Shown: one piece after another, positions 4,482 through 53,220 of the stretch | Layout: every line of letters starts with the position of its first letter | How positions within the stretch are numbered: position 1 is the first letter of the stretch | Assembly (NCBI GenBank): GCA_003971905.1 | Contig: RSEE01000036.1 | Location: 186,001-250,000 of the forward strand | From: Moniliella sp. 'wahieum' | Taxonomy: Eukaryota | Length of the DNA: 64,000 nucleotides | Direction of reading: 5' to 3' | Program-made: the position numbers and the translations under genes | Notes under the pieces: model-generated | What the model was told of the DNA's origin: nothing | Seen by the model: only the letters and a program-made list of their open reading frames with translations | Databases searched by the model: none

Positions 4482-5498
4482 GGCCAAAGGAAGGAGGAGG
4501 GGGGGCGGACTGTGCCTCACAGTGGGGGCGATAGATGGCGGCAATGGAAGAGAAGAGGAGAATCGAGACGATGGACTCGCCGCGGTCGGCAGAAGCCGTC
4601 GCACTGTGGTACTACTAAGGAGGCGCGCGTGAGCGCTCTAAGGATCTGGACACTGGCGGCCTGCGAACGGGGCTCCATCGGAAGATGAAGCAGCGATTGT
4701 TCAGAGTTCCCAATAGTAGGCCCAATAAAGCAGAGGCGAAAGGCTGGCAAGCGGCTGGCAAGGCACAATGGGTGATACGTGATGTACATGGTACACGTTA
4801 TAGATACGAGCAGCCTGCGCATGGCTTCTTCACCGACAGCTGGCATGGCGCCAGTGTACAAGAGAGGGTCTGCACCCTGGTCGTGTCCTGACACCTTTGC
4901 GTCGCGCAGAGAGGCTGTGGCGTCGTCCAGGAGACCTGGCGTATACGGCCGCTTCTTTTCACCAGCCATGGTCAAAACAAGGGACGGGCTTCTGTTGCCG
5001 CCAACTGGTATAATATCCTAATCGCCTCTCCCCCCACTGGCAGCACTAGTTGCATGCCACTAGTCACTGTGACTGTAATGCTCCCTTCGATCTTAGATCT
5101 ACGCCTCTTGTCCATCTGTGCTCGACGCACCACACCATCAACTCACGCAGCTGAAGAAACCCCGGGCGCCCGGATTCCTTGGCTGTGGGGGCACTTGGGT
5201 GTGGGAAGTGTGGCCCTGCGTCGCTTGCAGGCCGCCCTGGGCCAGGCGTCACCGGTCACCGGTCATACATCATGCAATTGAATCACGTGCAGACCGGCCC
5301 CTCCCCTGGGAGGCGGAATGGGGCCCAGAATATTTGACCATTCCGCCCTGCTTTGTGGCAAAGCAAGGCTCAGGCTGAGCCGCCTGGGACGGAGATGGAC
5401 TAGTGCGTGACTCGGCGAAGTGAAGAATCAAGCCCGGGCTCAGCCTTGCGTCCACCCACGCCCTGCTCCCACCCACCACCCGTCCCCAGCCTGCTCCC

Positions 5499-12329: not shown

Positions 12330-13095
12330 CAGGAAGCGCTAAGCTTAGCGCTACCAAGTACGCTGCCAGGGGCGCCGCAGCGCTGCACTGCCGGGCTGCC
12401 GACAGCGCTCAGCTGATATTTTCCGATGCCCGGGTCCCGCCCCACTGCCGCCCCGTGCCTGCCTGCTCCTCCTGCGCCACCTGCGCCGCCTCCCCCGCGC
12501 CCAGGCAAGCCCAGCAGATCCCACAGCGCAGCACGGCGCAAGCCTTGGCGTGTGTGCTTACCTCAGGCCTCATGCATCAGGCTCACGTATACATACCAGA
12601 CATCACCCATGCTGCCACATCATGCATCATTCATCATGGCGCACCCACCCCTTCTCAGACTCATCCATCTATCTCATCAATCTCACCAACCATCGGCCAA
12701 TCTCCTGTATGAGTGCGCGTACTCAATATTCAACCTCACCACTCCGTCTGAGTACTCAACCATCCCTGGCCCAATAAAATGGGACTGCCTCGCCCTCTCT
12801 CATGGTCATCACCTCACCGATCATGAATATCATGAACCGTCAAGTCATTCAGCACCACCAGTGTAACAAAGGAATACTGGCAGTGGACAAGTAGCATGTA
12901 GGTAAGGCCCACAACCTAAGGCCTACAGCCTAAGGCCTACAGCCTAAGGCCCAAGGCTCCATACACGCGAGCTGCAAGGCCTTTTGTCTCAAGCTCTACG
13001 AACAAGGTAGCCAACAAGCCACGCCAGGGCCACGCCCTGCGGCCTGCCGCGCCTTACGGCCTTACGACTTTTTCAGCGCTTCAATTCGGCCCTAG
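12330..13095. repeat. Cluster of TNA/4-bp-palindrome heptamer micro-arrays
   Basis: AGCGCTAAGCTTAGCGCT, TCA-GGCC-TCA-TGCA-TCA, (CCTAAGGCCTACAG)n. Confidence 0.8.
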
Positions 13096-13224: not shown

Positions 13225-15646
13225 CTAGTGGTTGTTGTGCGCATGCAGCGCTTGATTCGCCTGATCGAGCTCGGCCGAGGAAGGACCGGCACCATCGCGC
13301 GCGTTGGCCGCTTGCGCCGCCGCCGCCCGCGCAACCCGGGTAGCCGAAGGCGTCGACGCACCCGACCGGGAGGAAAGGGTGCCGCGGCGCGACCGCGGCT
13401 TGACGGCCAACGGGAACCGGAACCGTTCCTCGTCCGGGTCGTCCTCGGGCGGGCGGGCGATCGAGCGCCAAAAGTCGGTGTGCGTCGAGGCGTTGGAGCC
13501 AGCATCGCTGACCCCCGACATGTGGGTACGAGCAAGGGAGTCGGTCAGCGTACCAAAGTCACCCGGCGTCCGCAGACCCGACAGGCGAGGCGAGGCGGGC
13601 ACACTCAGCGGAATCCGCATGCGTCCATCGGCCAAGTCTTGCGAGGGATCAATCTGATACCCTTCGCCCTCATCCTCTCCCAGAGCAAAGAGACCATCAT
13701 CGTCGTCGTCAAAGCTGTCCGGGTAAGCACGACGGAGAGCGAGTTGCCGTGCTTTGGCATACTCCAGCCCCAACTTGTTCCAGTCGAGTAGCTCCGACAG
13801 ACGTTCGGTGCGGTTGCGCTGGTTGATCCGCTGCCGCCGCGTCTTCGAGACAAAGGACTCCATCTGGTCAGTCAGCATATTAACCGAGTCCTCCACCCCC
13901 TTGGACCGACGATCGACAATGTAGATCCCATAGTCTTCAGCATCCTCAATCATGTCTTCCATGAAACATCCAAAGCCCGACAAGTTGGTCGAGATGCTGG
14001 GAATACCCATGACAGTGCACTCGGCCGGAGTGTAGCCCCATGGCTCATAATACGACGGGAAGACGCCCAAGTGACAGCCGCGGACAAAGTCTTCATAGTC
14101 CATGCCGAGAATGGGGTTGTTGGCATTAAGGAACTCGGGGTGGAAGATAATCTTGACACGGTCCTCAGGCCGGTTAAAGAGTTGTACGCGGCGAATTTGG
14201 CTGAGGATCGGGTCCTTGGAATCGTCCGCCATGTTGTGAGTCACCACAGGAGGGAAAGTCTGGCGACGCATCGCAAACAGCCTTCTCTTCAGGGCGATCT
14301 TGTCCTTCTCGTCCAGCAACGCTTCTGGATCAATCTGCTCCAAGTTGGCCGACTCAGACCCAGCCGAGCGAGCGGTACGCTCAAGTAGGCGTTGGCCCAC
14401 CCGCGCGCTGATCTGGTCCACCGTTTCCTTAAGTGCCTTGGTGACCGCCTGGCCCTTAAGAGCTTCCATCGTATAGCTGGTGGTGGCCGCCGGCATAATG
14501 ATGAACGCCACGACTGTCATCTTGGAACCGGAGGCCTTCAGCCGCCCATTGAGCCGTGCAAGCGATTCGATAAACATGTCGACACCTTTATTGCGGAACT
14601 CGTACCGCCCCTGTGAACATGAAGATGGTGTTTTCAAGATCAAAGTCGTAGTGGCCATAGAAATGTCCTCGGACAAACTCGTTGATCTTGGCCTTAGAAA
14701 CGGCATGGAGATTCTGGAACTCGTGCACGGCGGAAAACTTGACGACATTGAGGCCGTTGGGCAAAACTCCATCAGGGCGGCGCTTCAGTAGGTACTCCGA
14801 CTCGTAAGCAGTAATGTGAGAAACTGTAGTGAACACATCAGCGGAATGGGCGGCGGAGCGTTCAATGCAGTAACGATGGTAGATGCCGCGCTTGCCTGCC
14901 TCAACATCAACGTCAAAGTATTGGAGATTGTTGTAAAAGTCCACATCACCTGCGCACAAGTACCTGCCGAGAAGGGTCGCGTGGGTGGTAAAGATGGTGG
15001 TCACGTCCAAACGTCGCTTGCGAATTAGGGGAATAGCCAGACCAGCCTGCCACTCGTGGAAGTGGGCAATGATGGCATGCTCGCGCTGGTGAAAGGCATA
15101 CTCGCCCAAGAACCAGGCGGTAAGGTAACCCAACAGCAACGTGTCATTGGTCTCCGTGTCAGTCGGGGGCGTCGGGATCTGGGCCTTCTCCCAAAGATCC
15201 TTCTTCCATTCGTCGAGCCGATGCGAGACAGAGCCAAGGTCGAAGAGCAACACTTGGGGGTGCGATCAATCAGCCAACGGCCATAGAGAAGGCGCACACC
15301 CTGTGCCCGCATCGCCTCAAGGGTCGCCTTCATCGCCGCGTCAGGCGGTTCGGCCTCCTCTACTTCCATGCGAGCATTCTTGTAGGACAGGGGCCGAGAA
15401 GAGTGTAGCGGTTACCATACTCTTGCTCGGTGATGGGAGCCTTGGTCTTGATGACAGTGTAGATTCCGCCAACTGGGGGCAGGCAGGGGTCAGTCCGCCG
15501 CGGTCAGGGAGAGCGAGGGAGGGGGAGGGGGGGGTACATGAGCACAACATGCGCTAGCACACAAACTCACCTTTGTTGGCGACTTCCCAAGCACATTCGA
15601 AGAGGATGGGGGAGCGCACATTGCGCACGGCGAGAGACTGTTCCAT
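13225..15646 (-). CDS. GSY1: Glycogen synthase (GT3), one intron, frameshifts
   Basis: [15 protein letters not shown] across a GT..AG intron at 15570-15473; [65 protein letters not shown]. Confidence 0.97.
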
Positions 15647-15849: not shown

Positions 15850-17280
15850 CAGCGTGACGCGTGACGCATGAGGGCGAGTGTGACGCATGGCAGCGCACAG
15901 GTGCAGTGTGCTGCGTTGCACATGGCAGGGCGCTGCACAGGGTGGGCCGGCTGGGCCTTAGCACTTAGCCGACGAGCGCAGGAGCACTGTCGCTGTGCTG
16001 CATGGCCTTGGGCCGGTCTGGCTCCGGGACCCAGTGCCCAGCACTAATCTGTGATCGGAGTGGGTCGGCCCCAACCAGCACAGCAGTGCACCACTACACA
16101 AATCCCAGAAACCAAGCCCAAAGGCAGGTCGTGCAAGTAACTGGCTTGCAGTACATAGCTTGTTGGCGCATTTGCCACCCCAGGCGTGGGGAGAACCCAA
16201 TCAATCCAGACTGGGTACTGGGATGCGTCACGCGTCACGCCTCAATCACGGCTATCAAGTTACAGATCATTCGATCATTTTGCCGGTTACCTGTTACCGT
16301 ACCGGTTACCCGCTCACCCGAATTTGCCCACATCGATAGGATCAGGGGGAAAGCTGATCGAGCTGATCGTTGCACCGTTCGAACGAACTTGAAGCCTCAA
16401 GCTTCAAGAACGATGTCGATTGACGTTCAACGTTCAACGTTCAGCACGTTCAGGCCGGCCTCAGGAACGTTCACACGTTCACAGGCCTCAGGACGTTCAG
16501 GCTGAACTTCAAGCGCTTCAAGCTTCTGCTGGCTGTACGACGGGGTTGTCGTGAGCGTTTTTACTAGTTACTAGCTAGTTACTAGTTACGCTAGTTACGC
16601 GTTACGAGGTTACGGTTACCGCAACAGCGAGCGAAGAGAGCGCGCAATACGTACCGGGGCCTGTGTACCATGTACCCGCAAATTGCGCACGGGCCATCTA
16701 AGGCGTGGCAGATCATCGATCTTCGATCATCGACCAGTATGTTAATTGCGTGTTACATGTTAATAGCGAGTAGCGCTTTGGACCGGTCCCTGGTCCCCGG
16801 TCACGCGGGCACGGTCCCGCGTCCTGAGGCAGTGCTGAGCCTCAGCGCTGAGGCGCTGAGGCCGAGGGTTGAACGTTGAAGTTTAGCGGTTCAACATTCA
16901 ACTGAACGTTCAGTCCCAGTGCATGACGAGATCCCACCTTCCGCCATCCGTCCTCGAAGTTCACTTGAACTTGAAGCTTGACTTCAAGCTTCAGCGTTTT
17001 CAACACGTTCAACCAGTATTATGCTGCCCTGCGCCGCCTCGCGCTGCCCTCTGCTGCTCCTATGGCGCTGAACACCAGCGGCCCCGCTTGGTGGGAATTG
17101 TGGGTGTCTCAGCAGGGCCGCATCGCAGTTTGTTAGTAACTTGTAGGTAGTAACTAACTAATCCCTATAGACAGACGAGCGGAGATATCGATGGGCGTGA
17201 TGCATGATGCATGTCGCATGTGGCACGCATGTTGCACTAGCATCGATCGATCATGCATCATGTGCATGCATCATGCAAGG
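15850..17280. repeat. Dense cluster of TNA/4-bp-palindrome heptamer micro-arrays
   Basis: Runs of ACGCGTC, ACCGGTT, AAGCTTC, AACGTTC, ACTAGTT, ATCGATC, AGCGCTG and ATGCATG. Confidence 0.9.
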
Positions 17281-22207: not shown

Positions 22208-22875
22208 TGTGTTCGACGTGGCGTCCGGACAATGTCAAGCACCCGGGGGTGTGCTCGCTGGCCATGCAACGGGCGCGGACGGAGACGCTGAGGGATACCG
22301 GAGGGGGGGGCTGTTGGAAGGGGTCGAGATGGTGAGGCGACGGCTGGGGCTGAGGTGTTCGCTATAGCCCCCTCAGACGTCAGATCGTCAGATGTCACAT
22401 GTCACAAGTCATCTCAAACGCTGAGCGCTCAGGCTGAGCTCGCACTCAGGCCCAGACTTCCGGCCTGCCCAGCCTGCATTATATCCGCGGCCCGGAGCGC
22501 GCACGGGGGAAGTGTGCTGGGCACGCGCGCACACCAGGACACTGGCGCAGGGCTGCGCACCCCAGCCGCCTTGCGCTTGCCGGCGCCGCCTCCGCCCGGC
22601 ATTGCCAACACAAAGAACACATCGTTCCCACGTCCCACCGCCTAGCAGACTATCGTGTCTATCGCATACCTCCATGGTGCGTAACGCATCATGCTTGCAG
22701 CTTTGCCGCCTTGTCCCTCGTTTACATGGGCCCATCGCAGGTTGGCTGAGGCCTCCTTAGACTAGCCTGAGGTGGAACAGCCAGCGCAACAAAAGAAGAA
22801 GGGTTTCAACATAGCATCGCCAACACAAATCAAGACACAAATGAGCAGAGCACCCAAGCCGAAATAGAGAGGACA

Positions 22876-31051: not shown

Positions 31052-32627
31052 GGCAGAAAAGCGCCTGGAAGGAAGGTGGGTGGATGCAGCCGGAATGTTG
31101 ATCCGCGAGTGGGCCGCCCTATTATAGTCGGAGATATGGGTATCCAAGAGTGCCCGGGCTTGCGCTTACTGTAAAGAATGCCTCAGGGCCGAACACTGGT
31201 GGTTTTGCAGCAAAAATAACATGACGTACGCCGGGGGTCAGTGTAAGTGCGCTTAAGCTTGCACAAATACTATACGGATGGTGAATGGCGCAGTAGCACT
31301 GGAGGGGCCGTCGCAACAGCGTGGGGGCAGTGTTCCCTGGTGTGCGCGGTCTGCTCAAACAGACCCGGGTTCAACATACTCTTCAACGATCATCGCTCAT
31401 GAACCATGATGCATGATGCATGGTGCAAGAGCGTTGAACGTTGAACTGCTTGGCCTGTGCCTGGGCGTGACGCGCGTGTGGTCTGGGGCTTGGAGAAGCC
31501 CTGAGGCTGAGGCCGAGATGAGGCCAGGGGACAGGACTGCGGACAACAGCAGTGTGCCGAAGCACGGGTTTTGCGTTCGAAGAGTATGCGAAGGTAACTG
31601 CGCCTGGCCGCAGTACCCAATGTCCAGTTTCCTGCATCAGCACAGCGCCACTATGGCAGTTACCCCCGCCCTGTTTCCGTTTGGCCGATGGCCAGGGTCC
31701 ACGAACCAGATATCTTTTATCTCCCCGGGCTCACTCACCGGCTCGCCCTCTCTCTGTATTATCACGTCCACACGTCTTAAGCGCTTTAGGCCTTGGGCCT
31801 TATCGAGCCTTGTATCTCGCGGCTAACGGCTGGAGTCAAAACACTACACCAGCAGATCCCACAACTCCGCCTTCCACTCTTCTGTCCCCTCCCCCCCCGC
31901 CCCCGTTTCACCCATCACCAACAAACCCCTTCTGCCCCTGTCAAGCCTCCGCCACCTCATCGTTAATCAAACCTTTTTATCCCCTAGTACCCACGATACT
32001 ATCACCGGTCCCTCAGGACTCCACCGTCAGGAACGAACGGCATGAATTGCTCGTTCTCCCACCTCATTTACCTTTTCAGGCCTTAGGCCTAACCTTAGGC
32101 CCCCTCAGGCCTCCCGACCTTGTCGCAGGCCTAAGGCCTTCTCATCATCCAACGGGCTCAACTGGCGCCTCAATACTGCGTCCAGCAAGAAGAGCCGCGG
32201 CAACAATAAGGTTCTTGAGCGTGGCGGGTAGCATATTTGTAACGCGCAGTGATCTGTATTGTTATCTCCATGTTATCGATTAATCGGGTTATCGATTAGA
32301 TTATCGTCGCCGCAGTCATTAGTCACTATCAGTCACTTGTGACATCTCAATGTTGTGTGCATTCCATTGACAGAGCTTAAGGCTGGGACAGGGGGAACGC
32401 TACGTACATAAGATCGGCTGGGAAATCCTGTACACTTTTACGTCATAGGCACGTGCCGACCGGTGCCACGTTCCCAGCCACCCGCAGCCAGAGAATCGGT
32501 GATATTATTTGCCCTCTCCAGCGTGGAAGGGTTCCAGCGTGGAACGGTGGACCGGGGGAACGGTGGCTACGGTGGCGAAGGGGAACGGTGGCTAAGGTGG
32601 CGACGCAGCAGCTGACCGGGCCGTAGG

Positions 32628-33125: not shown

Positions 33126-33479
33126 GTAGGCCCGGTGGTCCTCCTTGTGTGACATATGACTGGAGTGACGCCTGAAGCATGATGCATGATGCATGACGTG
33201 CATGACAAGTGGGGTGCGATGCATGATGCATGATGCATGATGCATGCCCGCCAACGCCAGACAGGGGATATGCCTTAGGCGTTAGGGTTGATGTGCCGCA
33301 CGTCACGCGTCATGCACCATGCATCACATGTTGTTCACGTGACATCACATGTGACATGCAGCATGCGGACAGCAGTGTTTACACAGTTGAACGTTCAAGC
33401 GCGCTCAAGCTTCAAGAGCTTCAAGGTGCGTTCAAGGTGAACGTTCAGTTGAACACGGTGATGCGGTGATATATGATGG

Positions 33480-34126
33480 CCATCCCCGACGAACCTCCTG
33501 TGGAGAAGAGGATGGGTCGAGGCGCGGGAGGAGGGCACTGCGCACCGACTACCGCGTAATGGGGCCTGGAACAATCGGAGGATCAGGAACGGAGGTGGAC
33601 CACACGCTGCGCACCACACGGGATCGCAGGAGGCGCAGAGCGCGTACCGAAAGATGGTGCATGATGCATGCATGATGCATGATGAGAGCACCGCGACGCC
33701 GTTATAGTTGGAACGCCGGGAGAAGGACCTGCTTCAGCTGCTGGAGCAATCAGAATGCGACGAAACGCCAAATACCAGGGACGCACTCAAGAGCCGTTTC
33801 CCCCCCTGGTTTTGACGACGCGAGGATACTAGGGCACCAAGACAGAGGGCAAGATGCTCGGGCACTGGAAGGATTTGACTACTGACTGTCAATGGAAATG
33901 GTTCCTCCCTCGGATGTCTACCACGTTCATCCATGTTCACACGCGCTTCCTCGGGTATGGGAACGGATGGCGGGCATCAGAGGGTCCTGACCTCCTGGCG
34001 ATTCCGTTCCTTAAGCGGGGTTGGCGCTACCAAGCAGCACACGCAAGATGAACGGGTCGGCTTAGGCGTAGCGTTTCCCTGTCCCAGCCTTATATAAGCT
34101 CTGTCAATGATATGGATGCAATATAG
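33480..34126 (-). mobile_element. Helitron-like family copy (5' end plus ~600-bp ORF-like body)
   Basis: Its reverse complement aligns by eye to 44520-45150 and 51615-52231; 5' motif TATATTGCATCCATATCATTGACAGAGC. Confidence 0.7.
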
Positions 34127-37100
34127 CTAATACATTCCGAAGAGCAGATGATAGATGACAGAGGGGGAGACTCAGGAGCCCGCCGGGTGTGTCTACGGGA
34201 TCAGTTGCTTCAGACAAGACGTGAAGGCGACGTGGTGCGCTTTTCTGAACCTCAAAAAGTCATAAGCGTTAGCACAGCCGATGAAAAGGGGAAGTCAAGA
34301 GAGCAAAATAAAATGAAAGTGTTGTAAGAGGGAAGAACCACTAAAAGAACGCCGAACATCTGAATCTCCTTTGAAGCCGGAACAAATACTATAGAAAACG
34401 CTTCTTGCACCAAGTCCGCGTTCGTCCAGGGTTTCCCTCAGCTCGCCCTCGCCCAATGAGGATGCAAATGGCGTCACCATGCAACTGTAGGGCAGTCAGT
34501 ATATAACTTTTCCGGCTCTCCTTCTATTCTTCTTCGTTCCTATTTTGGGATGTCGCACGAATGATGTGATATACGGACGAGCATTATAAGTAGTGTACAC
34601 CGCGGAACCATAAAGCAGTCAAAGAGAGAGAGAGTTTTTTTGAGCCACAGTTATTTCCAGGTGTCAAACTTCTATATTCTTATAGCAGGCTCTTGGTGAC
34701 GAAGACTTTTCTCCCGTTTTCAAGACGGCCACACCAGGGAAGGGGGAAGACGTATTCAATATAGTTTTCCAGAAAACGTTAGGAAATTTCTCATGTGATT
34801 CTCGTCTACTTATAAACAAGCAATTTAGTGCCATCTTCTCTCACCGTTCCGGATGAATATGGGCGCTGCGTTGAGTCATGACCAGATTCTCCGTGATCAA
34901 ATGGCCGTACAATCACAGATAGCCCTTACTGACTCAAGGAGCTAAGGGGATGGATCACGAAAACACGGATGAGAGCGAGTGAAGTATCGAGTATGAAATC
35001 GGTGTCGTTCGTCCAGAGAGGACGACAGGAGATGTGACCGCAACACAGGAGCACAAAAAAGGCGCGCAGAGAGGGTGGAGGGGGGGGGGTAGTACAGTGG
35101 CGTATCCGTCCGGGCATCGTAACACAAAAGCGACTGTCTAGGGAAGCCATCATCTACACGTCCGACAGCTGTCACATATCATAGCACCTTGGTAGACTTT
35201 ACTCCCATCGTCACAATTTCCTTCTGTTGAGCGTCTCTCGTCCTTCCCCTGTTTTCGTGTTTTGATCCATGTCCTCTTTTTTTGTGTCTCAAGAACAATT
35301 CCTCCATTCTGCGGCCCTTCGTCTCGACTGAGGTCTTTGTTCTCTCGTCTTTGAGGCGTGTCTCTCCTGGGCGTATATTTCCATCCGTAGGCATCACCAG
35401 CCTCATCCCGTCTCTGTTCTCTCTGTTCTCGTCTATACGTATGTATGTAATAGTCTATCTCCACATCCCTCTGTGACATTAATCAAATGTCCCTGCCTCC
35501 ATTATCACCGGCGGTCATATGTTGGTGCCATTAGGGTATATATGTCCCGCCATGTTTACTTCCCCTTCTTTATTGTTGCAACAAGTTATGTTCGTTAGGA
35601 ATATATGGGAGCACTAATATGGATTACATCTGTATTTACAAAAGTACTTGGAGTACCTGTGTGAGGCTTATATCTTGAAAACGGGTGCAGGCGAGGATTC
35701 TCATTGCTTACATGGGGCCATCCCTCAGATGTGCACTTGCGCTTTGGGAACTAACGACCCTGACACGCACACAATGACGAGGGGACTTTAGGGAAAGTCT
35801 GAATCTGGTTGTCGGTAAGCTCAAGAGGCATACTACGTTCATTAATCGCAAATACAAATGGCAGCAAAAGTGTACTAAAGCCAGTTAACTCGCATAGCCT
35901 CTGTGTAGGAGGGAGATTGCTTCGGATGCCGACAGGTATTCATTCAGGCTGCATGGAATGGTGCCTTATATACCAGAGAAGGAGAAGCTATCACACACGG
36001 TAGATCACGCGTGAGAGGGAAAAAGACACAAAAGGGGGCGAGGAAGATCTAGAACAAGGATCATACCCACATCCTGTGGGAATGTGTGTCTGATCCGTCA
36101 CTCTGAATGGATCAACCACACGTATACACATCGCGTCCCTCGTTCTCTGAGTCTTTTGAGTATCATGCATCATGCCGAAGCTGTCGTCACATCTCTTTTC
36201 AATGCTTGCAGTGAGTTTTTGAACTATTTTATTTCTAGGTATCGGGTGGACTTGAGGAGTTCAACAGACCCACTATATATAACGGTATACTTGATGCTCG
36301 TTGACCTCTGTCATATATAGAGTATCTCACGGATCTCGCGCATATCGCTCCCATTAGCAATCTTTCATCCCGAGACACTTTCCCTGCTCTTCCGCTTCGC
36401 ACCATGTCCTTTGCTCTTACGACCGAAGCCTCCACGTGTTACTCCGGCTTGTTCGAAACCCTGTCTCTTCCGGGTATATGGAGCTAGGAAAAGGTGTCAC
36501 GGGACGACGATCGCGCTCGCTTCTCGACTTCTCTCCCTATCACTTCTCGAATCCTCTATCTTTCGCCATCGCTCGCTATCGTGACTCGGATTCTCGGCCT
36601 AACTACAAAACCCACAACAATCATCTCTTCTGCGCTCGGGCTCGTCTAAAATCCAAATACTACACATGGTTTCGACTCGGTTTATCGCCTCTCGTTTCTC
36701 GTCTCGGGTCCGCTTTACATCTTGAACCTCGCCCGTCTCTGACTTAGTGCCTCTCGTGATTGATCAACACTCCTCCCTCCTGAATCGTTTCCCCTTTTCG
36801 CTGTATAGGCCTGTTGGTCTTTCCTTTTCCCCGTCTCTTCTATAAAACCTGCCTGTTCTTAGATCCAGTTGTCATGGCCTATTAAGCTGCCCGCCATTGT
36901 TTCCCCCTCACCCTTATTCTGTAGTCACTCTCCACTCTAGAAGAACCACCTTTTAATCAGTTCGCTTGCCCTCCCTCGCCCATCATCGGAGCTCCTCGTT
37001 TTCTCGCCCAGCTCCTAACGTGCAACCTCTTTTGCAGGGGCTAGGCTCTTCCGGACGAACAGCAAAGCACTATTCGCGACCCTCCTACGTTTACGCCAGT

Positions 37101-39729
37101 GTTCTTTGGACTTTGGATATAAACAGCGTTCAGTTCTCCGTGAGTCTTATCTCCGGTAGGGAGGAAGGTCTCCGCCTGGGAGGCCAGCAACTCCCGTTAC
37201 AGAAGGTTTAGACCTTAACCACTACCATCGCTATTGCATTGCTCAATGTACATTTCAAGAGGTTCAACATCCAAATAGTGCCTCCAAATAGCAGAGAGCG
37301 CAACGTATGTTTTGGGACGGGCCCAATGCTTCATGCTTCATGGACCACTTGTAGTGTCATAGCCCTCTCTTCTATAAGGTTTGTTGCCTTCCGAGAGAAG
37401 CCTGTTACCACTGTGGTTTTTTTAATTGTTCAAACCCCGGCCTCTTCCATCAGATGTGTAGCCTTCTAAGCTTGTTAGATCTTAGACCTCAACGTAACAT
37501 CAGATTCATCATGCATCATCGATCATCGCCATTGCATTACCGGTTACCGGTTCCCGGTTACCCCGCTCAAATTTCAACCCCGTGGGTTCCCCCAGTCTTG
37601 CACAATGCTCTTGTTGGGTGGGGTACTGGTGCATTATATGAGGAAGTGCTATCGGATGTTATTCTTAGTGCCTTCGCAGCCTCGCTTGCTTCTGTTGGGG
37701 GGGGTGCTGGGGTTCCCCTACACGGCCCTCGGTGGATCGGTGACGCTCACTCACTTAACCGGGCGGAAGAGTTCCGCTCGCAGGGCGCGCACGCCCTGCT
37801 CGCTTCATCTCCCTTCTCTCTCTCCTGTCTCCTTCCCTTCACGTTACCTGAAGACTTATGGCCCACCACTTTGCCTTCACGCCTTGTCTGAAGGCTGCTT
37901 TGCAGCTGAACCATTCTATGTTGACCAGGGTCCTATGGGCCAGCCACCTCCGCGGCACTCCTGACCATCTTACTCATCCGGGCACCACACCAGTATCCCT
38001 ATCCCCTGGCCTAGTGCCGCCCTCCTTTCTTCTTCTTCTTCTTCTGATCCTCAGTCTGGGTTCAACCCAGCTCCTGTCTTCTCTCTGCCATTGCATACTG
38101 CACTTAGGACGTCGCTGGGTAACCAGGATCATTATTCTAGTAGCTTCGTCTCTGCTTCGCTCTGTCAACATCTATATGCCAGTGCGGTGGGGCTTAGACA
38201 GGAGGGGTTACCAAAACAGGGTCAGCCAACAGTCAGCATCCTCGATCAGTGGGATCCTTTATCCCACCTTCCATTCTCGTCCCTTCCCGCCTGGTTTCCG
38301 GCCAGCTGATTGAGTAATGCAGGCAACCTCTCGTCTCCACTTAGCTGCCTCATCCTCATCATCCAACCTCGTCCTCCAGCTTTCATCCGCCCGGTCACGC
38401 GAGCCTTCCTTCAGCGGCGTCGATTCGCCCTACCACAGCGTATCGCGTGGGTTCCTTTCACAGCTACGTCCACAGCCGCCCCCGCCCAGCTTCAGTCCTG
38501 GCAGTCTTTGTCTTCCACAATCTACCCGTCCCTAAGCTCCGGAGGCTTCAGACACGTTACTACCCCCCCAAGCCGGCGCATACACAGCCTTTCCGCGCGT
38601 GCGGCCGCCTCGGCTTCACGCCCAAAGGCTTCTCCTCGGCTCGGATCCATCAAATAGCAGCCAGTCACGTGCAGGTCGGCGGGCAGTAGGGTTCACATTT
38701 TCTTTGCCTGCTCGCATATAGAACTAAGAGATGGCGGGAAACGGGGTTGCTTTGCGTGGTCCCATATCTCATCATCGACTTGCGTAACATCCATCAAACA
38801 TAGTAATCATACCTATGGAACCGCGATCATCAATGAATGTCACATGTCATCTCAATTAGCCTGTAATAAAAAGTGCGTTGTCGGTCGGCCGCACAGCAAT
38901 CTCAGTTGCTGGGCCCTTTTCCCATCCCCTCCGCATGCACTACCCATGAGACAGAGTACTCACATGTCACACTTGAAGCTCTTGAAGCTTGAAGCTTACC
39001 GTATTGCCTGTGATGTATATTTTCGCAACACCCCCCCGTCAAACACATAGGCACGCCTACCTTCCCTCCTTCCATGTGGAGATATTACCACCCGATGAAG
39101 AGAATCTGACACGTTGAAGCTGTACCCGGGACTTGTTCCTTTTTCAGGACTTAAGGCCATCAGAGTTGTGGGACAAAAAACGTTGCACTTAAAAAACCTT
39201 GCTGATGCGGCGTGCATTGCATGCTCGTTTTGGCGCCAAAATCATTTAAGAACCAAGGGGCCCCGCTAGTATAAGTCGGACCCTTGGGTGCCCGCCATTG
39301 GCTTCCACAAAATGTATGTCGTCCGTGACGGGTGAATACGAATGATGCGAATGAATAACGTGTTGTTGGTATACACATGTGAGCGCGGTGCCCGGTGACG
39401 TGAACCATCTTCAATCATATGAGGGGCTTTTCTCGGTTTATTAATTATTCTCCTTCCGGTGCCCAGCAAAACATCTTGTTGGGGGTCTTGCGGTAGCATG
39501 GTATCCGCACTCGTCATGACCAAAGGGGAAGAAAGGCTGTGGAGTGTTGCGGCATCCACTTCTGTTGCTTCTAAAAATGCGCCACATCCCTTGATGGGAG
39601 CATAGTGTATACCCCTGCATGGCCGTGTGGCTCTCTCTGTGCCCTGCAAACTGAGAGGTGCAGGGCCCCGGCCGAATATAAGCTTTCGTGCCACTGGCAA
39701 CAGTAGCCAAAGCCGTAGGGATGATTTAG

Positions 39730-41045
39730 AGCCACGTCACGCGTCAGGGTACCCTCCGGTTTTTTAGTCTATCTCGTTACAAAATCGTGCTTTTTGTCAC
39801 CATCCGATGATAATACGAACAGGTGTGGCTTAGCGCTTTTAATAGGCTAAGTGCTTAGCTTGGGGTGGCGGGTTAATTAATGGACTTCCCGTACCCCGCC
39901 TTTCGAGCGAGTTTGTGGCTTAAGATTTAGTATCGATGATCGAGATGATCGTGAAATCATGCGTTACAACTAACATGCAGCACCGGGCACCGGGCACCTG
40001 AGAAATAGTTGTGGAACAGAGGCATAGAGGCTGTAACATGTAACATGTGACATGTGACATGCGATCGGTGACCTGTTGTGAACGCGTGTGTGCATGTGAA
40101 CGTTGAACATAGGAAGCAGTGCTCTCAGATCTCAAGCTGAGCCCAGCTATGATGTGGGGTTGTGGTGCTACCGGGGCAGAATACCAATGTTGCGGGACAA
40201 GAGAGCGGTGGCGCCAACGCACGTTACATTCCACCATGCTCTCGCCTTCTGTCGGTCGTGTTGAGGAAGTGCATGGCTGCTCAGCGCTCAGCAGGCATCA
40301 GCTTGTTGGACTTCAAGCTTCACTTCAGCTTCAAGTGAAGCTTGAGAACCCCAATCTCAATCTCAATGTGCCGCCACATTATCCCACCTAGAGTGTGCCC
40401 ACAGGAGATGACATCCTAAAGCGCCTCAGCCTCAGTGCTGGAAGCTTTAGATCTGAGATCTGAGATTGAGATCTGAGAGCTTGTGAATTTTGGAAGGAGC
40501 GCCGAGCAAAGGCACCCTGAATGTATGTGATCATGTGACGTCAGCATGAGAGAGAAGCCTGCTGCCTGCGGCGAGCCTGCGGGGAGACTGTGGGGAACTG
40601 TCGGAGGCTCGGAGGCAGGCACTGCATCAGTGCGGAGAAAACGGTGCGGGCGGGCGGGCGAATGTCTTGTACCCTCCTGTGCCTTGCATCAGTCCTTGTA
40701 CTGAACGTACTTGTTCCAGAGACTGCAGACGCACGTCTCCGAGAGCTCGGGCAGAGCGAGCAGGGCAGTGGAACACTTACCTTTGCAGTCACTCTCACTA
40801 GCTCCACTAGCTACTAGTTCTAGTTACTAGTCACTCATGTCATGCATCATGCATCATGCACCACGGATCATCGACCATCGACCATCGATCATCGATCATC
40901 TCCCGATGGGCCCCGAGAGCCGCAGGCGCTGGCCATCCTGAGCGTTAGCGCTCCTGCCTCAGGCCAGGCTCCGAAGCCCGCCTCACCTGGGCTTGAGGAG
41001 CTTGAAGCTTGAGGCCTGATGCATGATGCATGACGCATGAGCGAC
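39730..41045. repeat. Dense cluster of TNA/4-bp-palindrome heptamer micro-arrays
   Basis: Runs of ACATGTN, AGATCTG, ACTAGTN, ATGCATC, ATCGATC and AAGCTTG. Confidence 0.9.
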
Positions 41046-41535: not shown

Positions 41536-43436
41536 ATGAATAGCGCTGTCGCATCGTCACAGCCAGCGGCGGCACCGGAGCCTGCACCGGAAGCGGCACC
41601 GGAGCCAACCCCTTCCTCGAAACAACAAAGCGGCACTAACTAATGGCGGTTATACCAGCGCGGCCTCTGCTGGTGGCTCCGTCTCGCCCTTGACAGCCCC
41701 CACCCCCGCAGCTCATTTGGCTTGGTTGTCATTTTACCGCTGCTGCTGCTCGGTTACTCGGCAGTGATGGCCACCACGTGTCTGCTAATGCTGCTCCCCA
41801 GCTTTCCCCTGAAATTGCCCCCGAGGTGACTTCCCCATCTTGGGATTGTCCTGGCATGAAAGGTTCCTCCCCCTGCTCCACCGGGCTCGGATCGTGGTCA
41901 AAATCCACTTCATACGTTTCGTCGCCTTGTTCCGATGTTGGACTGGAGCACGAGGAATGCAGGTCTGGTTTGATCCCATCGAGCGCCAGATCGAGCAAGA
42001 TGGAGAGGCACTGTTCCTTGGTCGCTTTACTGATCGCTCGCCCTTTAATCCGGATCTCTCCGCTGACACGGGAGGGGTGCACCCAACTGGGCAGGCGAGC
42101 ACCCATGCGTCTCCCTCACACCAAGAAGCACGCGCCTTGGGCAATGCCGATGGGAGTGATGGCGGCAATCATTCTACCGGCCCTACTCTATCTCCTCATC
42201 GAATGCGTGGTGGCGCAATCCCCAATACCAATGGCAACCCACCACGCCTGGAACAATATCGTGCTGCGTTGTCGGCCAAGGTCGTTTCGCGAAAACACGT
42301 TGAGATTTGGTGCACCTCTGACCCTCCCCCCTCCAAGGCTGGGAAACCTCTTTCCGAAGACGTGGGCCCCCTAGATATCAATCGTCCCATATCACCTCTG
42401 GTTTTAGGGATGAACGATGAGCATGCGTCTTCGGGGAAGAAGCTCTGGATTCGTCTGTTCAGGCGCCTGCACAAACGCCAGAAACCCCTGCTGTCAAGTG
42501 GTGGATCCGTGACCTGGGTAGCAGTGCTGGAACGTTTGTCAACAACACACTCTCTCCAAGCCTTTGGTGGCCAGTGGGCCAACGGAGCTGCACGAGGGAG
42601 ACGTTGTGAAGCTTGGCGTTAACTATTCCAGGGGACGCAACGCCTACCAGGCAGTTCAGATGAAGGTCGAGCTGCACGACGTTGATGTGCAGACAGAGTA
42701 TGCGGCCCATGCTCGGCGCTACCTTGCCCAGCAGTTGCACAAAAACGACAGTGCCACGCCTGCAGTGGTGCCGGCGAAAGATGGCACCGCAGCCGTGCCA
42801 GCCAAAGATGGTACCCCAGCCGTGCCGATAGCTGAATGCTGTATCTGCCTCTTTGGCATGACGGTTTCTCAGAGCTTGTTTATTGCTCCCTGCAGCCATT
42901 CCTTTCACTACAAGTGCATCCGCCCTCTGTTGATGCGCCTTCACCCAGGCTTCTGCTGTCCCTTGTGCCGCAGCTTTGCCGACCTGGACGAGGAGGTGGA
43001 CGCGGTCGATATGGATGCCAAGCCAGACTCTACCCAGGCAACCTCGAACGCCCAGACAACCTCGAACGATCAGGCAACCTCGAACGATCAGGCAACCTCG
43101 AACGCTCAAGCAACCTCGAACGCTCAAGCAACCTCGAACGCTCAAGCAACCTCGAACGCTCAAGCAACCAGCCCCACCGCAGCTACTACCTCATTCGCGC
43201 CCTCTACAGAAGCAACAAGGCCGGCGAATTATAATAAGGGCAAGGCTCCCGAAGCCATCGGGGAAAGTGTGGCGGCGATGGTGGCGGCAGGAATGCTGGA
43301 CGTGTCTACACAGGGACGGAGCGCTCCTTCTGGCGAACACGTGCGCGAAGCTTCCGGGACGGATTCCTCGGCGCATTCAGGCTCGAGATCGGAGGGGATC
43401 ATGGGTCGCACGAGTCCGTCTCGTCAGCATCAATGA
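41536..43436 (+). CDS. DMA1: FHA + RING-H2 E3 ubiquitin ligase (Dma1/Dma2 family), frameshifted
   Basis: FDPIERQ..LGRFTDR, SAKVVSRKHVEIW, GSSAGTFVN, ELHEGDVVKLGVNY; RING ECCICL..FIAPCSHSFHYKCIRPLL..CPLCRSFADL. Start uncertain (ATG at 41216 or 41536). Confidence 0.9.
43035..43169 (+). repeat. Coding 18-bp tandem repeat (QATSNA/D x7.5)
   Basis: Units of consensus CARGCAACCTCGAACG(A/C)T directly after the RING domain. Confidence 0.97.
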
Positions 43437-44375
43437 GCAGCACGCCACCTCTGGTTAACAAGCATGCTTCTTCGGGGGCTCCAGGCTCATTCTTGCCCAC
43501 ACCGCGGGCAGGAACACTTCCTCATTCCTAACATTCCCACTCATATGCCGCCTCATTTGTACAAGCCCAGATTTGGGATGGATCTCATGTCCAGGAGCGT
43601 TGGTGCTCGTTGCTTTCATTCTTTGCCATCGGCCAATGGCGCGTTTCTGGCATACGCATGTTTCTCGCATCCTTCACAAGACTCACCTACTCTCTTCATT
43701 CGCCCGCCCGATGTATGTCTATGATTGCATAGGGTTTAGCGCCCACATTAAATCAAAAAAGGGCACCCTGACAAAGAAGCACGTATAATAAGAGTACTAG
43801 GGGGTGCGGCAAAAGGAAGTCAGGTCCACCCAGACATTAGAAATGAGGGGGCGGAGATATGATTTCTCGGGACATCAAACAGTCTTTTGCCCATTAATAA
43901 AAAACGTCACAACGTCATTAGTCATAGTCACACCGCTTATTCTTGAACCCCTCTCCAGTATCACAGTGATCTGACACTAGTGACATTGCACAGTGCGAAG
44001 GTGAGTAGGGCATAGTGTATAGATAAATGTAACCGGGTCTGGGGTGGCTGAGGTTTGATGGCGGGAAACCGGTAACCGGTAATACCAGGGAAAGGAATCA
44101 GTGTAGGTGTTGGTATAGGAGAGGGTTGGATGATGAGCAACAGAGGTTTTTTATAGGCAGAGAGGCGGACCGGGCATGTGGAAGAAACCCCATGTTGTGG
44201 GGATATATGCTTCGATGGATCCGCCGGCGCAAGTTTCTACGCCTTCTGTGCTTTTTCGTTTTGGCTCCTCTCTCATATTGAACGGGACGGTTCGGGTGCC
44301 CATTTTTTTTTCAGCTCGTGCGCTCCAGCCCACATCCAACGAGTCGACTGTGAAGGAGGAGGATAGAACGGGCAT

Positions 44376-44481
44376 TAAGCTCTGTCAATGATATGGTTAT
44401 AGCATATAGGAGTCGGTTTCGGCGCAGCGTTTCTTTGTCCCAGCCTTCAGCTCTGTCAACGATATGGTTGCAGTATAGGGA
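44376..44481 (-). mobile_element. Two tandem 5'-end fragments of the Helitron-like family
   Basis: AGCTCTGTCAAYGATATGGTT occurs at ~44378 and ~44449, the reverse complement of the family 5' motif. Confidence 0.65.
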
Positions 44482-44519
44482 AAATGACCAGATAATTATG
44501 CACCAGTATCCTTTACTAG

Positions 44520-45150
44520 TATATATTGCATCCATATCATGACAGAGCTTAAGGCTGGGACAGGGGAATCGCTACGTCTAAACCGAACCAATCATCTCGC
44601 GGGGATTACTTTTAGAGGCGCCACCAAAGTTAAGGAACCAGGGGGATCGCCAGGATATCAGGATGACCCCCTGGTTCCGCCATCCGGTCCCGTACCCTAG
44701 GTAGCGCGTGTGGACACGGATGAATGTGGTTGACATCCGAGCGAGGGACCATTTCCATTGAGACTCAGTAACCAAATCCTTCCAATGCGAATATCTTGCC
44801 CGCTATCTTGGTACCACCGTAGTATCCTCGCGTCGTCAAAACCAGGGGGGGGAAACGGCTCTTGAGTGCGTCCCTGGTACTTGGCGTTCTTGTCGCATTC
44901 TGCTTGTTCCAGCAGCCGAAGCAGCTTCTTCTCCCGGCGTTCCAAAGGCGAGACGCAGCGCTCTCGTGCACCACCCTCCGGTAGCGCTCTGCGCCTCCTG
45001 CGTTCCCGTGTCGCGCAGCATATGGTCCACCTCCATTCCAGATCCTCCGATTGCTCCGGGCCCTATCACGCGGTAGTCAGAGCGCTGTGCCCTCCTACCG
45101 TCCCGCCTCGTCCCATCCTCTTCCTCCACTGGCATAGGTTCGTTGTGGAT
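44520..45150 (+). mobile_element. Helitron-like family copy (5' end plus body)
   Basis: Begins TATATATTGCATCCATATCATGACAGAGCTTAAGGCTGGGACAGGGG and is colinear with 51615-52231. Confidence 0.7.
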
Positions 45151-45449
45151 GTGGGTGTCGGGGATGGAGCGCACGAACTGGGCTCCCGCACTGCCTCATG
45201 CAACGCATTAAACTTGGCATATATGGGAGCGGGTGCACACCATGATGTGCTCCAGCGAGGACATGACGCCGCACTTGCACATGCTGCGCTTGGAGCGGCA
45301 CAGCGTGCGGAGCTGGAGACCAACCTGAACCTGCTGGTCAGAGAGCTTGAGGCACGGGACAGATGGAATGGCGGAGAGCCAATTGCAGTGGCTCAGCGGG
45401 CTGCTGTGCTCAACCATATGGCGACCATCGGCAGCGTCCAGCTTCTGGA

Positions 45450-45820
45450 GCAGCTCCTGTTGACTCTAGAACGCCACAAATACCATGGACGTGCCCAAGA
45501 ACCGTTTTCTCCCTGGTTAGACAGCGGACAAGATGCCTGGTACCTGGAAGGAATGGACTCCTGAGTCTCGATGCAGATGTTTCACCGTTCGGATGTCTAC
45601 TACCACGTTCTTCATCCGTATCCACGCGCGCTTCCCCGTGTATGGGAACGGATGGCGGGTACCAGAGGGTCCTGATCTCATGGCGATTACCCTGGTTCCC
45701 TAGACGAGGATGGCGCTAACAAGCAACATATACGCCGGATGAACGAGTTGGTTCAAGCGCAACGTTTATTTGTCCCACAGCCTTAAAGCTCTGCCAATGG
45801 TATGGTTGCGCGAAGTAGAG
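45450..45820 (-). mobile_element. Diverged family copy, inverted relative to 44520-45150
   Basis: 45470-45810 matches 33765-34120 in the same orientation (KYHGRAQEPF vs YQGRTQEPF; GTATGGGAACGGATGGCGGG; AGCTCTGYCAATG). Confidence 0.65.
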
Positions 45821-46931
45821 ACTCAATACTCAATTTCTCAGCCGGCTTTCGGCGCTGAGGCGCTGAAGAAGCTTGAAAAGGCATTGATCATTTCGATCAT
45901 TTCGATCATCGATAATCGATAATCGACTATCGTTAACAACGTTGGTAAGGCTGGCCAACGCCAGAAAGAGCTTGAAGGCTGACGCTGATGCTCGAAGGCT
46001 GGCTTGAAGGCTCCAAGCTTCAAACTTGAAATATTATGCCGGCTTGCATTGCGAGATCTGTGCTGTGGTCAGAGAAATTTTGGCCATATGAAAGCCGACT
46101 GCAGTGGCTACATCCCAGGAGACGATGGTCCAAATAGGCCACAAGGGAGAGTTTGCGCAGCAGGTGGTCGAGAAGAGCGGGAAAGCGGTGGTGCACAAGA
46201 AGTAGCCGTCAATTCGGTCACTGTGCTGGACGGTCGACATGATCGACAAAAGCGAAAAAGCATATTGTTGTTGGCCATACATCACAGTAGTCATTTACAT
46301 GGCCTGAGGGCCAGACTACTAGTCAACTAGCCGAGCTTCAATAGTCACCTAGTCACACGCCGGACGGTCAAAGTCCGGTCAACAAAATGTAGGCGGTGCT
46401 ATAACATCTTCAAGGGTGGGGGGTGATGTACGTTCACATAGCACGTTCACATGTCACATGTCACAATGGTCCTGTGTCCAGCCACTAGCCCTCGGCACAT
46501 AGGCAGCGTTCAGCCGGCCCAGGGACACTGGATTCGTGCTGGGGGCGAAGCGGGTGGAGTGACTACAGTGCTGAAACTCAATGTTCCATGTTCGCCACTC
46601 GGAAGGCGGGGCGGGACGTGGCGGGACTGGTGCACAAAGAAATAGTCGTGCAGCACAGGGCCTGTGTCTGGGTCGCGCAGATCTGCGGATCCCATTTTTA
46701 TTACGCTTTCCGGCGCGCAGCGTGACGCTTGGCTGGGGAGAAATGGCCTGACCACCTTAGTCGCCCACCCAACTGTTGCCATCACGGTGGCTCCGATGGC
46801 GGAGGTGTCGATCCGGTGGTCATAAAGTCGCTGGATAGCTACCTTCCACTCCTAGGGAACCCACCACTACACTACCCCCTCTTCAACGACTCTTCCACCC
46901 CCCCCCACACATTCTTTTGCTTGTTCACACC

Positions 46932-50997: not shown

Positions 50998-51499
50998 GTC
51001 TGTCATGTCCCTCAGTGCACCTATGTTACGTCGTTGGCTTGCGTGCCGACCGTACCTGGAATCTGGGTCACATCGAAAATGATCCATACATGTATAGGCA
51101 CTGCCAGTGTCTAGGACTTCACCTTAAGCCTGACTCACATTTGTGGGGATCTTTGGCGTTGCGGGCACGTCATTTCCGCTTCTTCACTGGCAGATGATCC
51201 TTGTGACACCGTCATACCTATACAGTTGCTTTGAATGGGAACAAAGGAAGTTGGAGGTATGAAGCTGTGAAGTCGGGCAAGAGGATGTAACACTTTCTAG
51301 TGACCCTCTTCGTCTCCAATTCCTAGTCTCATGTCTACAGCACTGAATATTGACCTCGCAGAGTTCAATCGGCGCCCCCGCTTATGTCCATGAAGTGTCC
51401 AAATATACCACAAATACACACGGGTCTTCGCGTGCGCCCTGCGCCTACATCAACTCTAAACCATCTTCATCATGACGGCGGCCGTAAGGAGTGTACTAG

Positions 51500-51607
51500 T
51501 ATATTGCATCCATATCATTGACAGAGCTTCAATTAAGGCTGCGACAGGGAAACGCTACGCCTAAACCGACCCGCTCATCCGGCGTGTGAGGCCCGGTGGT
51601 CTCCTAG
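51500..51607 (+). mobile_element. Minimal (~108 bp) Helitron-like element: family 5' end joined to family 3' end
   Basis: TATATTGCATCCATATCATTGACAGAGC ... AGGCCCGGTGGTCTCCTAG followed by T. Confidence 0.7.
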
Positions 51608-51614
51608 TTCACGT

Positions 51615-52231
51615 CCATTTCATTGACAGAGCTTAAGGGGGACAGGGGGAACGCTACGTCTAAACCTACTAACCGTTCATCTTGCGGGGGTTACTTGGAA
51701 GCGCTACCAAGGTTAAGGAACCGGCGGGATCGCCAGGATATCAGGACCCTCCGGTTCTCGCCATCCGGTCCCGTACCCTAGGAAGCGCGTGTGGACACGG
51801 AGGAACGTGGTTGACATCCGAGCGAGAACCATTTCCACTGAGACTTCGTAGCCAACTCCTTCCAATGCGCAAACAACTTGCCCGCTGTCTTTTGGTGCCG
51901 TAGTATCCTCGCGTCGTCAAAACCAGGGGGAGTTCCCCTAACCTGCTCTTCCCAGAGTGCGTCCCTGGTACTTGGCGTTCTTGTCGCATTCTGCTTGTTC
52001 AAGCAGCAGAAGCAGCTCTTCCTCTCCGGCGTTCCAAGGGGGTTGCGGCCCGGGTGCTCTCATGCACCACCCTCCGGAACGCGCTCTGCGCCCCCAGCGA
52101 TCCCGTGTCGCGCAGCGTGTTGTCTACCTCCATTCCTGAGAGCCTCCGAGTGCTCCGGGCCCCATCACGCGGTAGTCGGTGCGCTGTGTCCTCTGTCTCC
52201 TGCCATCTCTTCCCCACCATAGGTTCGTTGC
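51615..52231 (+). mobile_element. Helitron-like family copy (5' end plus body)
   Basis: Colinear with 44530-45150, including shared GTAGTATCCTCGCGTCGTCAAAACCAGGGGG and GAGTGCGTCCCTGGTACTTGGCGTTCTTGTCGCATTCTGCTTGTTC. Confidence 0.72.
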
Positions 52232-53167
52232 GGACTACTTCTCGTCCAATAGGGCTTTCTTCGTCCTGAGTTACTGTGACATGTGGCTGTGGGCGCCCAC
52301 CGAGGACAGCGATCAATATTTTCATTCGCTTTAAGCTTCTCTCTGTAAGACCGGAGAAACCCAAGGGGTTGGGTGATGAACCTCTGGAAATGTAGAGCAA
52401 TGCAATCGCGGTGGTGGTGGTTAGGTCCTTATGCCACACCTAGAGGAGACAGGGGTTCAAACAAGCCTGCAGTGAGTTAACGTGCAGCTTCGGAGGTCAA
52501 ATCAAACAGGGGCGAAGGGTGATGATCGAGGAGGTGATGCCTTGGCCTAAGTACGGGACCGCGGGTCCCAACAGTTCAAGTTTTGCTTCAAGCTTCGCGA
52601 GGTTCATCACCTCGCTTCTGCACGGAGTATGTGGTGGGCTCAAGCTTCAAGTCTATAAAAAAGAGAAGATGAATTACTATTCCGAGAGAGGAGAGAGCCC
52701 GTGTAGATGAGTGGATAACAACAGCGTTGAAAGTGACCTAGTACTTAGTAGTGACAAGTGCGACGCCCTGCGAGGCCCCACAAGAGGCATCTCATGCATC
52801 ATGCATGATGCAGGTGTGGGGGATATATATTATCTGGTGTGCCTAATACTTCTGTGCCATGTGCATGAGGCCGGCCTGAGGGGCATGAACGTGAACCGTC
52901 AACGTGTGAACGTTGAGTACGTTGAACGTGAAGAACTTCCCACAGTCAACCACATGGGAATCGGGCCTCTCCCACTACAAGATAAGACGAACCAATTCTG
53001 TTCTTTGTTCTACATTCTTGAAAGTGTGCTACCAGTGGCACTTATATGTATGACACGCGAGTAGAGTATTCGAGGTAGCCGTCAGTATAGTAGCCTGTTA
53101 CACTTTAAGTGGCAAGATGTGGTGGTGGACGCAGTGGCTACCTGACATGTGACACACTCTGTTTCAC

Positions 53168-53220
53168 AACCATGTGCGCATATGGTTACTGTGTGCGCGT
53201 AACCATATGCGCACATGGTT
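53168..53220. repeat. Perfect 22-bp inverted repeat with 9-bp spacer
   Basis: AACCATGTGCGCATATGGTTAC (53168-53189) and GTAACCATATGCGCACATGGTT (53199-53220). Confidence 0.97.

Follow-up and report, generated by a model that had tools for sequence, protein, structure and literature searches.

A dyad-symmetric 7-bp rule shared by short tandem repeats of differing sequence in a fungal nuclear genome

Why should short tandem repeats of quite different sequence, scattered through the non-coding DNA of one contig, all be built on one pattern of symmetry? The question is raised by contig RSEE01000036.1 of assembly GCA_003971905.1 (Moniliella sp. 'wahieum'), of which positions 186,001 to 250,000 were analysed (64,000 nucleotides, hereafter the window; all coordinates are those of the window). 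Region 15850-17280 is made up largely of very short tandem repeats, and these, like others in the window, follow the rule (A-pal4-T-N)n, in which a 4-bp palindrome (the core) lies between T-N-A triplets that recur with period 7. Two T-N-A triplets with a 4-base spacer between them are referred to below as a TNA-frame site. The 7-bp dyad-symmetric pattern, first noticed in an original prediction made from the letters of the sequence, is confirmed to be real: each array has its own core under one common frame.

Over the window as a whole, to which the counts refer unless region 15850-17280 or other contigs are named, the spacer is palindromic in 104 of 248 TNA-frame sites (42%; binomial p = 5e-58 against 1/16). 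The corresponding fraction is 3.1-7.6% in the other 15 X-N-Y frames. Thirty dinucleotide shuffles of the window gave a mean of 9.9 palindromic TNA-frame sites, and Markov simulations gave 10 (order 3) and 19 (order 5). When spacers of 0-12 bases were scanned, enrichment was found at spacer 4, i.e. period 7, alone, the values at spacers 11 (13/174) and 8 (4/114) being echoes of it. The excess over about 1/16 that had been predicted, and its confinement to one frame and one spacer length, are thus borne out. Within region 15850-17280, 16 of 24 TNA-frame sites are palindromic, where Markov models of order 1 and order 3 gave 0.2 and 1.1, and the 6-bp palindromes there, sorted by outer base, number 30 with A, 2 with C, 6 with G and 4 with T.

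The same preference is seen in the tandem repeats themselves. Exact 7-bp tandem repeats of at least two copies number 41, and 31 of these have a rotation consisting of a 6-bp palindrome plus one base, all with A....T as the outer pair and none with C, G or T as the outer base; chance would give about one A-pal4-T-N case among 41 (about 2.7% of units). The remaining 10 are near their chance number (~5). An identical 6-bp palindrome recurs after one base 25 times with outer A, once with outer G and never with outer C or T, and any other gap between identical 6-bp palindromes accounts for at most three cases in all in a scan of the window. Tandem Repeats Finder returned 126 rows, with many period-7 rows concentrated in a few blocks.

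The exact arrays are formed by 10 different cores. Inside TNA frames all 16 possible cores are present, where about 15 had been claimed, although TTAA, ATAT, GTAC and TATA are found 1-2 times each and are individually not above chance. Core usage tracks the background frequency of TNAxy (rho 0.68-0.69). T-N-A is the sole X-N-X' class containing stop codons, but the palindromic core is not accounted for by stop codons. At the free base N, C (44) and G (37) together account for 81 of 103 sites, with T at 15 and A at 7; N is the same in the two successive frames of 79 of the 104 palindromic sites and complementary in 14. Thus, the arrays are direct repeats with two pseudo-dyads and not true long palindromes.

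All ten tandem examples cited in the original prediction were found in place, that at 58118 amounting only to ATTAATGATTAAC, about 1.5 units. The arrays of region 15850-17280 are as follows (strand not assigned, here and in the second list).

15852-15871: ACGCGT-G array, 2.9 copies, the exact inverted twin of 16223-16240
16223-16244: ACGCGT-C array, 2.9 copies
16397-16520: TCA-framed run in one frame, with an AAGCTT-C unit, three AACGTT-C units, then AGGCCT-C and AACGTT-C units interleaved
16561-16606: ACTAGT-T arrays that include a 9-bp variant and an 11-bp unit in which the CTAG core is doubled, followed by an ACGCGT-T unit
16711-16733: imperfect GATCATC-type array (ATCGAT/GATC cores)
16839-16862: the palindrome GCCTCAGCGCTGAGGC, then 2.2 copies of the 8-bp variant unit GCGCTGAG
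16870-16993: scattered AACGTT and AAGCTT units, in both N orientations
17198-17277: ATGCAT-G array facing an ATGCAT-C array (imperfect inverted pair)

The inverted pair of ACGCGT arrays, 353 bp apart, was considered as the two ends of a mobile element and rejected: no flanking duplication was found, and the match follows from the common unit. The sequence GGCGCTGAGGCC occurs twice in the window (16853 and 26803). Outside this region the arrays are the following.

5248-5265: ACCGGT-C, 2.6 copies, between the G-beta and trp genes
12563-12638: TCA-GGCC-TCA-TGCA-TCA chain and a CATCATG array
22373-22431: ACATGT-C array and TGAGCGCTCA
31405-31446: ATGCAT-G, 2.6 copies, and AACGTT-G, 2.1 copies, upstream of the amino-acid permease gene
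33173-33447: the largest ATGCAT-G arrays (~10 degenerate copies), with ACGCGT, ACATGT, AACGTT and AAGCTT units
33658-33685: 21-bp TGCA/TGA array inserted in one copy of a ~650-bp repeat
37504-37562: adjoining ATGCAT-C, ATCGAT-C and ACCGGT-T arrays
38956-38997: ACATGT-C unit, and an AAGCTT-G array with a 9-bp variant
40032-40061: ACATGT-A passing into ACATGT-G, N changing inside one array
40279-40478: AGCGCT-C, AAGCTT-C/G and AGATCT-G arrays
40806-41040: ACTAGT, ATGCAT-C and ATCGAT-C arrays, and the four-core chain TGA-AGCT-TGA-GGCC-TGA-TGCA-TGA-TGCA-TGA
45886-45936: ATCGAT-A array and the 9-bp variant GATCATTTC, upstream of the multicopper oxidase gene
46447-46465: ACATGT-C, 2.7 copies
52792-52812: ATGCAT-C array passing into an 18-bp perfect palindrome
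57650-58130: block with CTAG, AGCT, TGCA, TCGA and AATT cores, upstream of the Gti1/Pac2 (WOPR) gene
62697-62714: ATCGAT-G, 2.6 copies, upstream of a ribosomal P0-like gene

A GGCC unit adjoins TGCA units in one T-S-A frame at 12566, 41013 and 52862 (~0.7 expected), and does so again at 8713-8729 of L064, a fungal metagenome contig. In non-coding DNA at 53168-53220, the two arms of a perfect inverted repeat, 22 bases each, are separated by 9 bases.

The arrays are short and highly perfect. The 104 elements join into 87 chains, of which 73 have a single core; two cores are present in 12, and there is one chain each of three and of four cores. There is little decay, the excess of perfect cores being ~96 as against ~28 with one broken pair, and with so few broken-pair units the arrays are either young or maintained. 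In 41 near-units flanking the arrays, the mismatches by position are A 9, x 14, y 4, y' 4, x' 9, T 9 and N 11. The two central positions vary least, and N, the one position that the rule leaves free, is not more variable than the framed positions. Units of 8, 9 or 11 bp also occur, formed from the 7-bp unit with 1-2 extra bases or from a doubled 4-bp core, and these variants are themselves tandemly duplicated; since they have been re-duplicated, slippage-like growth appears to be part of the story.

By its protein similarities, the window is nuclear DNA of a member of the Ustilaginomycotina. The condensin subunit Cnd3 is 34-37% identical to the proteins of Ustilago and relatives and 44% identical to that of Tilletiaria anomala. 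The guess of a smut in the original prediction was therefore roughly right, as far as the Ustilaginomycotina are concerned, although even the nearest named relative for this protein is only as close as the latter figure. Other recognisable genes are LTV1, G-beta, a trp gene, glycogen synthase, an MFS transporter, an amino-acid permease, a RING protein, a multicopper oxidase, a Gti1/Pac2 factor and two ribosomal proteins. From the positions of genes and chains, the array blocks appear as discrete units ~0.2-1.8 kb upstream of gene starts, with block 15850-17280 placed upstream of glycogen synthase. Elements are almost absent from the three convergent 3' gaps (0, 0 and 1). Lone seeds, that is 4-bp palindromes adjoining T-N-A, are found everywhere in the window (399 in all), and the bin 34001-36000 has 14 of them and no array. 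Thus, expansion is regional.

Three genes of this neighbourhood have features of their own. The Gti1/Pac2 (WOPR) regulator gene (55220-56642, minus strand) has one of the richest array blocks (57650-58250) ~1-1.6 kb upstream. Glycogen synthase is interrupted by a frame shift at a run of four G (14599-14617), inside a conserved motif and where an intron would not fit; an assembly error in the homopolymer (an extra G) is the most likely cause, as otherwise the gene is broken. Inside the reading frame of the RING-finger protein, an 18-bp unit is repeated 7.5 times (43035-43169, 94% matches) and encodes a hexapeptide repeat.

One array can be compared with its unexpanded state. A ~650-bp repeat is present in three copies that are ~80% alike (33481-34125, 44522-45151 and 51614-52193). 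Two of these read GTGCA(T/C)GAGAGC, and the third, which lies beside an array block, has 21 additional bases that make it read TGCA-TGA-TGCA-TGCA-TGA-TGCA-TGA-TGA, the array being terminated by a TGATGA junction. The derived array is built up of several duplications of pre-existing sequence, 7, 11 (or 4) and 3 bp in length. As the TGCA core and the TGA are present in the unexpanded copies, the array duplicates what was already there, and as the core predates the array, its symmetry was inherited from the seed. This one case argues against cores made de novo and against remnants of transposon ends.

The ~650-bp repeat belongs to a dispersed family whose members are 74-90% alike (32350-32405, 33481-34138, 44375-45151, 45519-45809, 51488-52193 and 58623-58864). 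The family has a recurring end, with 8 matches to a 20-mer where none is expected by chance, two of its copies flank the multicopper oxidase gene, and it is possibly an old non-autonomous mobile element. It was rejected as the agent of the arrays, as it has no protein family match and no link to T-N-A sites was found. Two further sequence changes were seen. At 34089, CTTAAG has been turned into CTTATATAAG relative to the other copies, and at 37245-37254 a 4-bp insertion, CATT, has made AATGTA into the perfect 10-bp palindrome AATGTACATT, as compared with a copy at 52369-52427.

Is the rule peculiar to this assembly? Metagenome contigs were scanned for three ATGCAT-G units, which gave 118 loci: six contigs of one accession series (36 kb) and 112 others (504 kb). 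The TGCA core, being the search bait, was left out of the counts. In the six independently assembled contigs, 18 of 99 TNA-frame sites are palindromic, as compared with 2-9% in other frames, and three of six non-ascertained 7-bp repeats are palindromic, all three with outer A. In the other 112, 5.7% of TNA-frame sites are palindromic, and 23 of 201 non-ascertained 7-bp repeats, which is the chance level of 10.3%. With the rule present in independent contigs and absent from the other 112, it is neither an artefact of this assembly nor a matter of general heptamer biophysics. The view in the original prediction that ordinary slippage is insufficient agrees with this chance level and with the 31 of 41 units that fall in one symmetry class in the window. 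In one of the six contigs there is an intron-split MCM3 gene with 63-75% identity to those of many Agaricomycetes, which places at least this contig, by sequence similarity, in an Agaricomycete. The rule thus seems to be a basidiomycete trait that is weaker in mushroom-type contigs. Additionally, contigs L014, L017 and L061, from other organisms (GC content 0.46 in L017 and 0.62-0.63 in L014 and L061), contain tandem TTGCAA-N heptamers with T....A as the outer pair; overall, the 7-bp repeats of other organisms are not enriched for palindromic units.

What produced the arrays? The explanation favoured here, tentatively and with somewhat less than even confidence, is that they are young products of a lineage-restricted and regionally confined duplication acting on chance combinations of a palindrome and T-N-A. 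A seed of this kind would be tandemly duplicated repeatedly, mostly by 7 bp and also by 3, 4 or 11 bp, to give (A-pal4-T-N)n, so that the dyad symmetry would be multiplied from the seed and not created anew. We infer a slippage or hairpin intermediate in this growth: with two units in place, each core could pair with the next across the T-N-A apex, which would favour misaligned re-annealing in replication or repair. Either the process or the survival of its products would be restricted to the upstream blocks, where the DNA is presumably open or underwound. A wider claim, held with a little more doubt, is that in basidiomycetes, from this Tilletiaria-like smut relative to mushrooms, a sequence-directed process multiplies seeds specifically in gene-upstream DNA. 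This would need a lineage-specific enzyme or DNA-binding factor recognising T-N-A, in effect a writer of promoter variation.

Several points weigh against seed duplication as a full account. The exclusive A....T outer pair, and with it the T-N-A frame, is not accounted for: hairpin-aided slippage alone predicts G....C, C....G and T....A units at least as often, in conflict with the 25, 1, 0 and 0 recurrences with outer A, G, C and T. As 7-bp repeats elsewhere show no palindrome bias (the 23 of 201), a further lineage-specific factor is needed. The first 7-bp duplication is left unexplained, because a single seed offers no direct repeat to slip on, and the evidence from before and after expansion comes from one case. 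Junctions in which two differing palindromic cores share a T-N-A triplet are enriched (38, as compared with 7-21 in other frames), and N stays constant while the core switches in three chains (12563, 37509 and 41003); such chains look more like a fixed frame receiving new cores than like one unit drifting. Finally, an upstream-only location fits selection equally well.

Selection is a rather unlikely but substantial alternative, under which the arrays would be promoter elements. Either a protein or chromatin machinery would read the T-N-A frame with its symmetric spacer, or unstable repeats would tune nucleosomes or expression, duplication supplying the raw material only. It would suit the placing of blocks upstream of the glycogen synthase, amino-acid permease, RING protein, multicopper oxidase, Gti1/Pac2 and P0 starts, the near-empty convergent gaps, the unexpanded seeds of other non-coding DNA, the recurrence of the GGCC-TSA-TGCA composite in the window and in L064, and the sharing of the rule with an Agaricomycete contig. 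N orientation is mixed within single blocks, as a symmetric site would give. However, at least 10 different cores in exact arrays leave no fixed recognition sequence, and arrays of the same core are not clustered (16 of 185 pairs of neighbours within 500 bp, as against 15.7 in shuffles), both of which uphold the earlier argument that one sequence-specific factor is insufficient. Selection on the frame is also at odds with decaying units in which N varies no more than the framed positions, and we know of no factor family that reads T-N-A at 4-bp spacing. A TNA-targeting cut-and-paste transposase or domesticated nuclease (PIF/Harbinger- or IS5-like), making repeated staggered T-N-A cuts in open promoter DNA that are then filled in and joined, is less probable still. 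T-N-A is the target duplication of this superfamily, and the copying of N unchanged from unit to unit (the 79 of 104 sites), also across different cores, the clustered promoter-proximal distribution, the limitation to certain lineages and the TGATGA junction in the before-and-after case would all be in keeping with it. The simple TNA footprints that had been proposed nevertheless lose ground, as same-N TNATNA duplications show no excess (62, one of the lowest counts in the 16 classes), C or G predominates at N where TWA would have A or T, and no match to transposase families was found among the 104 open reading frame translations of the window. Nor do they explain why only palindromic cores are involved, non-palindromic TNA-N4-TNA sites being at background level. 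The five minimal 14-bp arrays begin in four different phases relative to the T-N-A frame, and by geometric reasoning alone symmetric nicking at TNA should give staggers of 3, 4, 10 or 11 bases and not 7.

A core that is free yet always palindromic is the classic signature of hairpin opening, and palindromes might accordingly have been written de novo, the off-centre opening of hairpin-capped breaks (P-nucleotides) or fold-back synthesis adding xy and y'x' beside T-N-A. The mixed-core chains with their shared frame and the CATT insertion at 37245 would fit, but this origin is considered very unlikely. Where the ancestral state of an array is known, in a single case, the core came first, a coincidence of ~1 in 256 under such a model, and general palindromes are hardly enriched (even palindromes with arms of 5 bases, 64 as against 45 expected; with arms of 6, 18 as against 13; the excess of odd palindromes is the arrays themselves), both of which weaken the general fold-back synthesis proposed earlier. 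The spacer scan of the window gave a period of 7 alone and no sign of a 5- or 8-bp target duplication. A variant with a 5-bp duplication plus two P-nucleotides has a fitting geometry and was rejected, as the before-and-after case contradicts it. An assembly or sequencing artefact is close to inconceivable: at least one likely homopolymer error is present in the assembly (the extra G at 14599-14617), but such errors do not make perfect multi-base dyad-symmetric repeats in 86 upstream-confined arrays, and metagenome contigs assembled independently follow the same rule. The original prediction thus stands in its negative inference, and of its three mechanisms (fold-back or hairpin-opening synthesis, TNA-targeted transposition, selection for a structure-read chromatin element) none is established and the first two are weakened.

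If seed duplication is a directed mutational process, it would be a new mutational signature at work on the promoters of fungi and a way to reach the enzyme responsible, and would show non-random generation of regulatory DNA. If selection is responsible, it points to a reader of the T-N-A frame with a symmetric spacer. As markers in smut-related fungi, the arrays are probably hypervariable. No description of a palindromic T-N-A heptamer rule was found in the available parts of the literature on smut, basidiomycete and fungal heptamer or palindromic repeats, and the arrays are accordingly classed as short tandem repeats with an apparently undescribed symmetry rule. Yeast promoters carry unstable tandem repeats, and heptanucleotide simple sequence repeats are known. 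The usual surveys end at 6-bp units, and on either account the rule may have been missed so far because 7-bp units fall outside this 1-6 bp range.

Among known systems, arrays of sites for dimeric factors (heat-shock elements, bZIP) share dyad symmetry and upstream location, and TGAACGTTCA and TGAAGCTTCA contain GAAnnTTC; here, however, at least ten cores are repeated directly (with the same N) instead of inversely, with no same-core clustering. The P-nucleotide or hairpin-opening footprints of hAT, Transib and RAG-type systems are likewise short perfect palindromes of arbitrary sequence, at repair junctions, whereas here the palindrome pre-existed in the traceable case, 5- or 8-bp duplications are lacking and the arrays are periodic. 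The duplications and footprints of PIF/Harbinger and the IS5 group resemble the arrays in the recurring T-N-A, the unchanged copying of N and the preference for gene-proximal DNA; they differ from them in that the window has no TNATNA excess, mostly C or G at N, a period of 7 and not 3, a palindromic core and no element or transposase that was found. Quasipalindrome template-switch mutagenesis (PMC8604942) perfects and homogenises short inverted repeats and could keep cores symmetric, although it alters bases without adding 7-bp units; general palindromes are hardly enriched here. Microsatellites and unstable promoter repeats are alike in their head-to-tail short units, low copy number, position upstream of genes, re-duplicated variants and growth from existing sequence. 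However, ordinary slippage lets any 7-bp unit expand, whereas here a single symmetry class, with its fixed T-N-A frame, takes in 31 of the 41 units.

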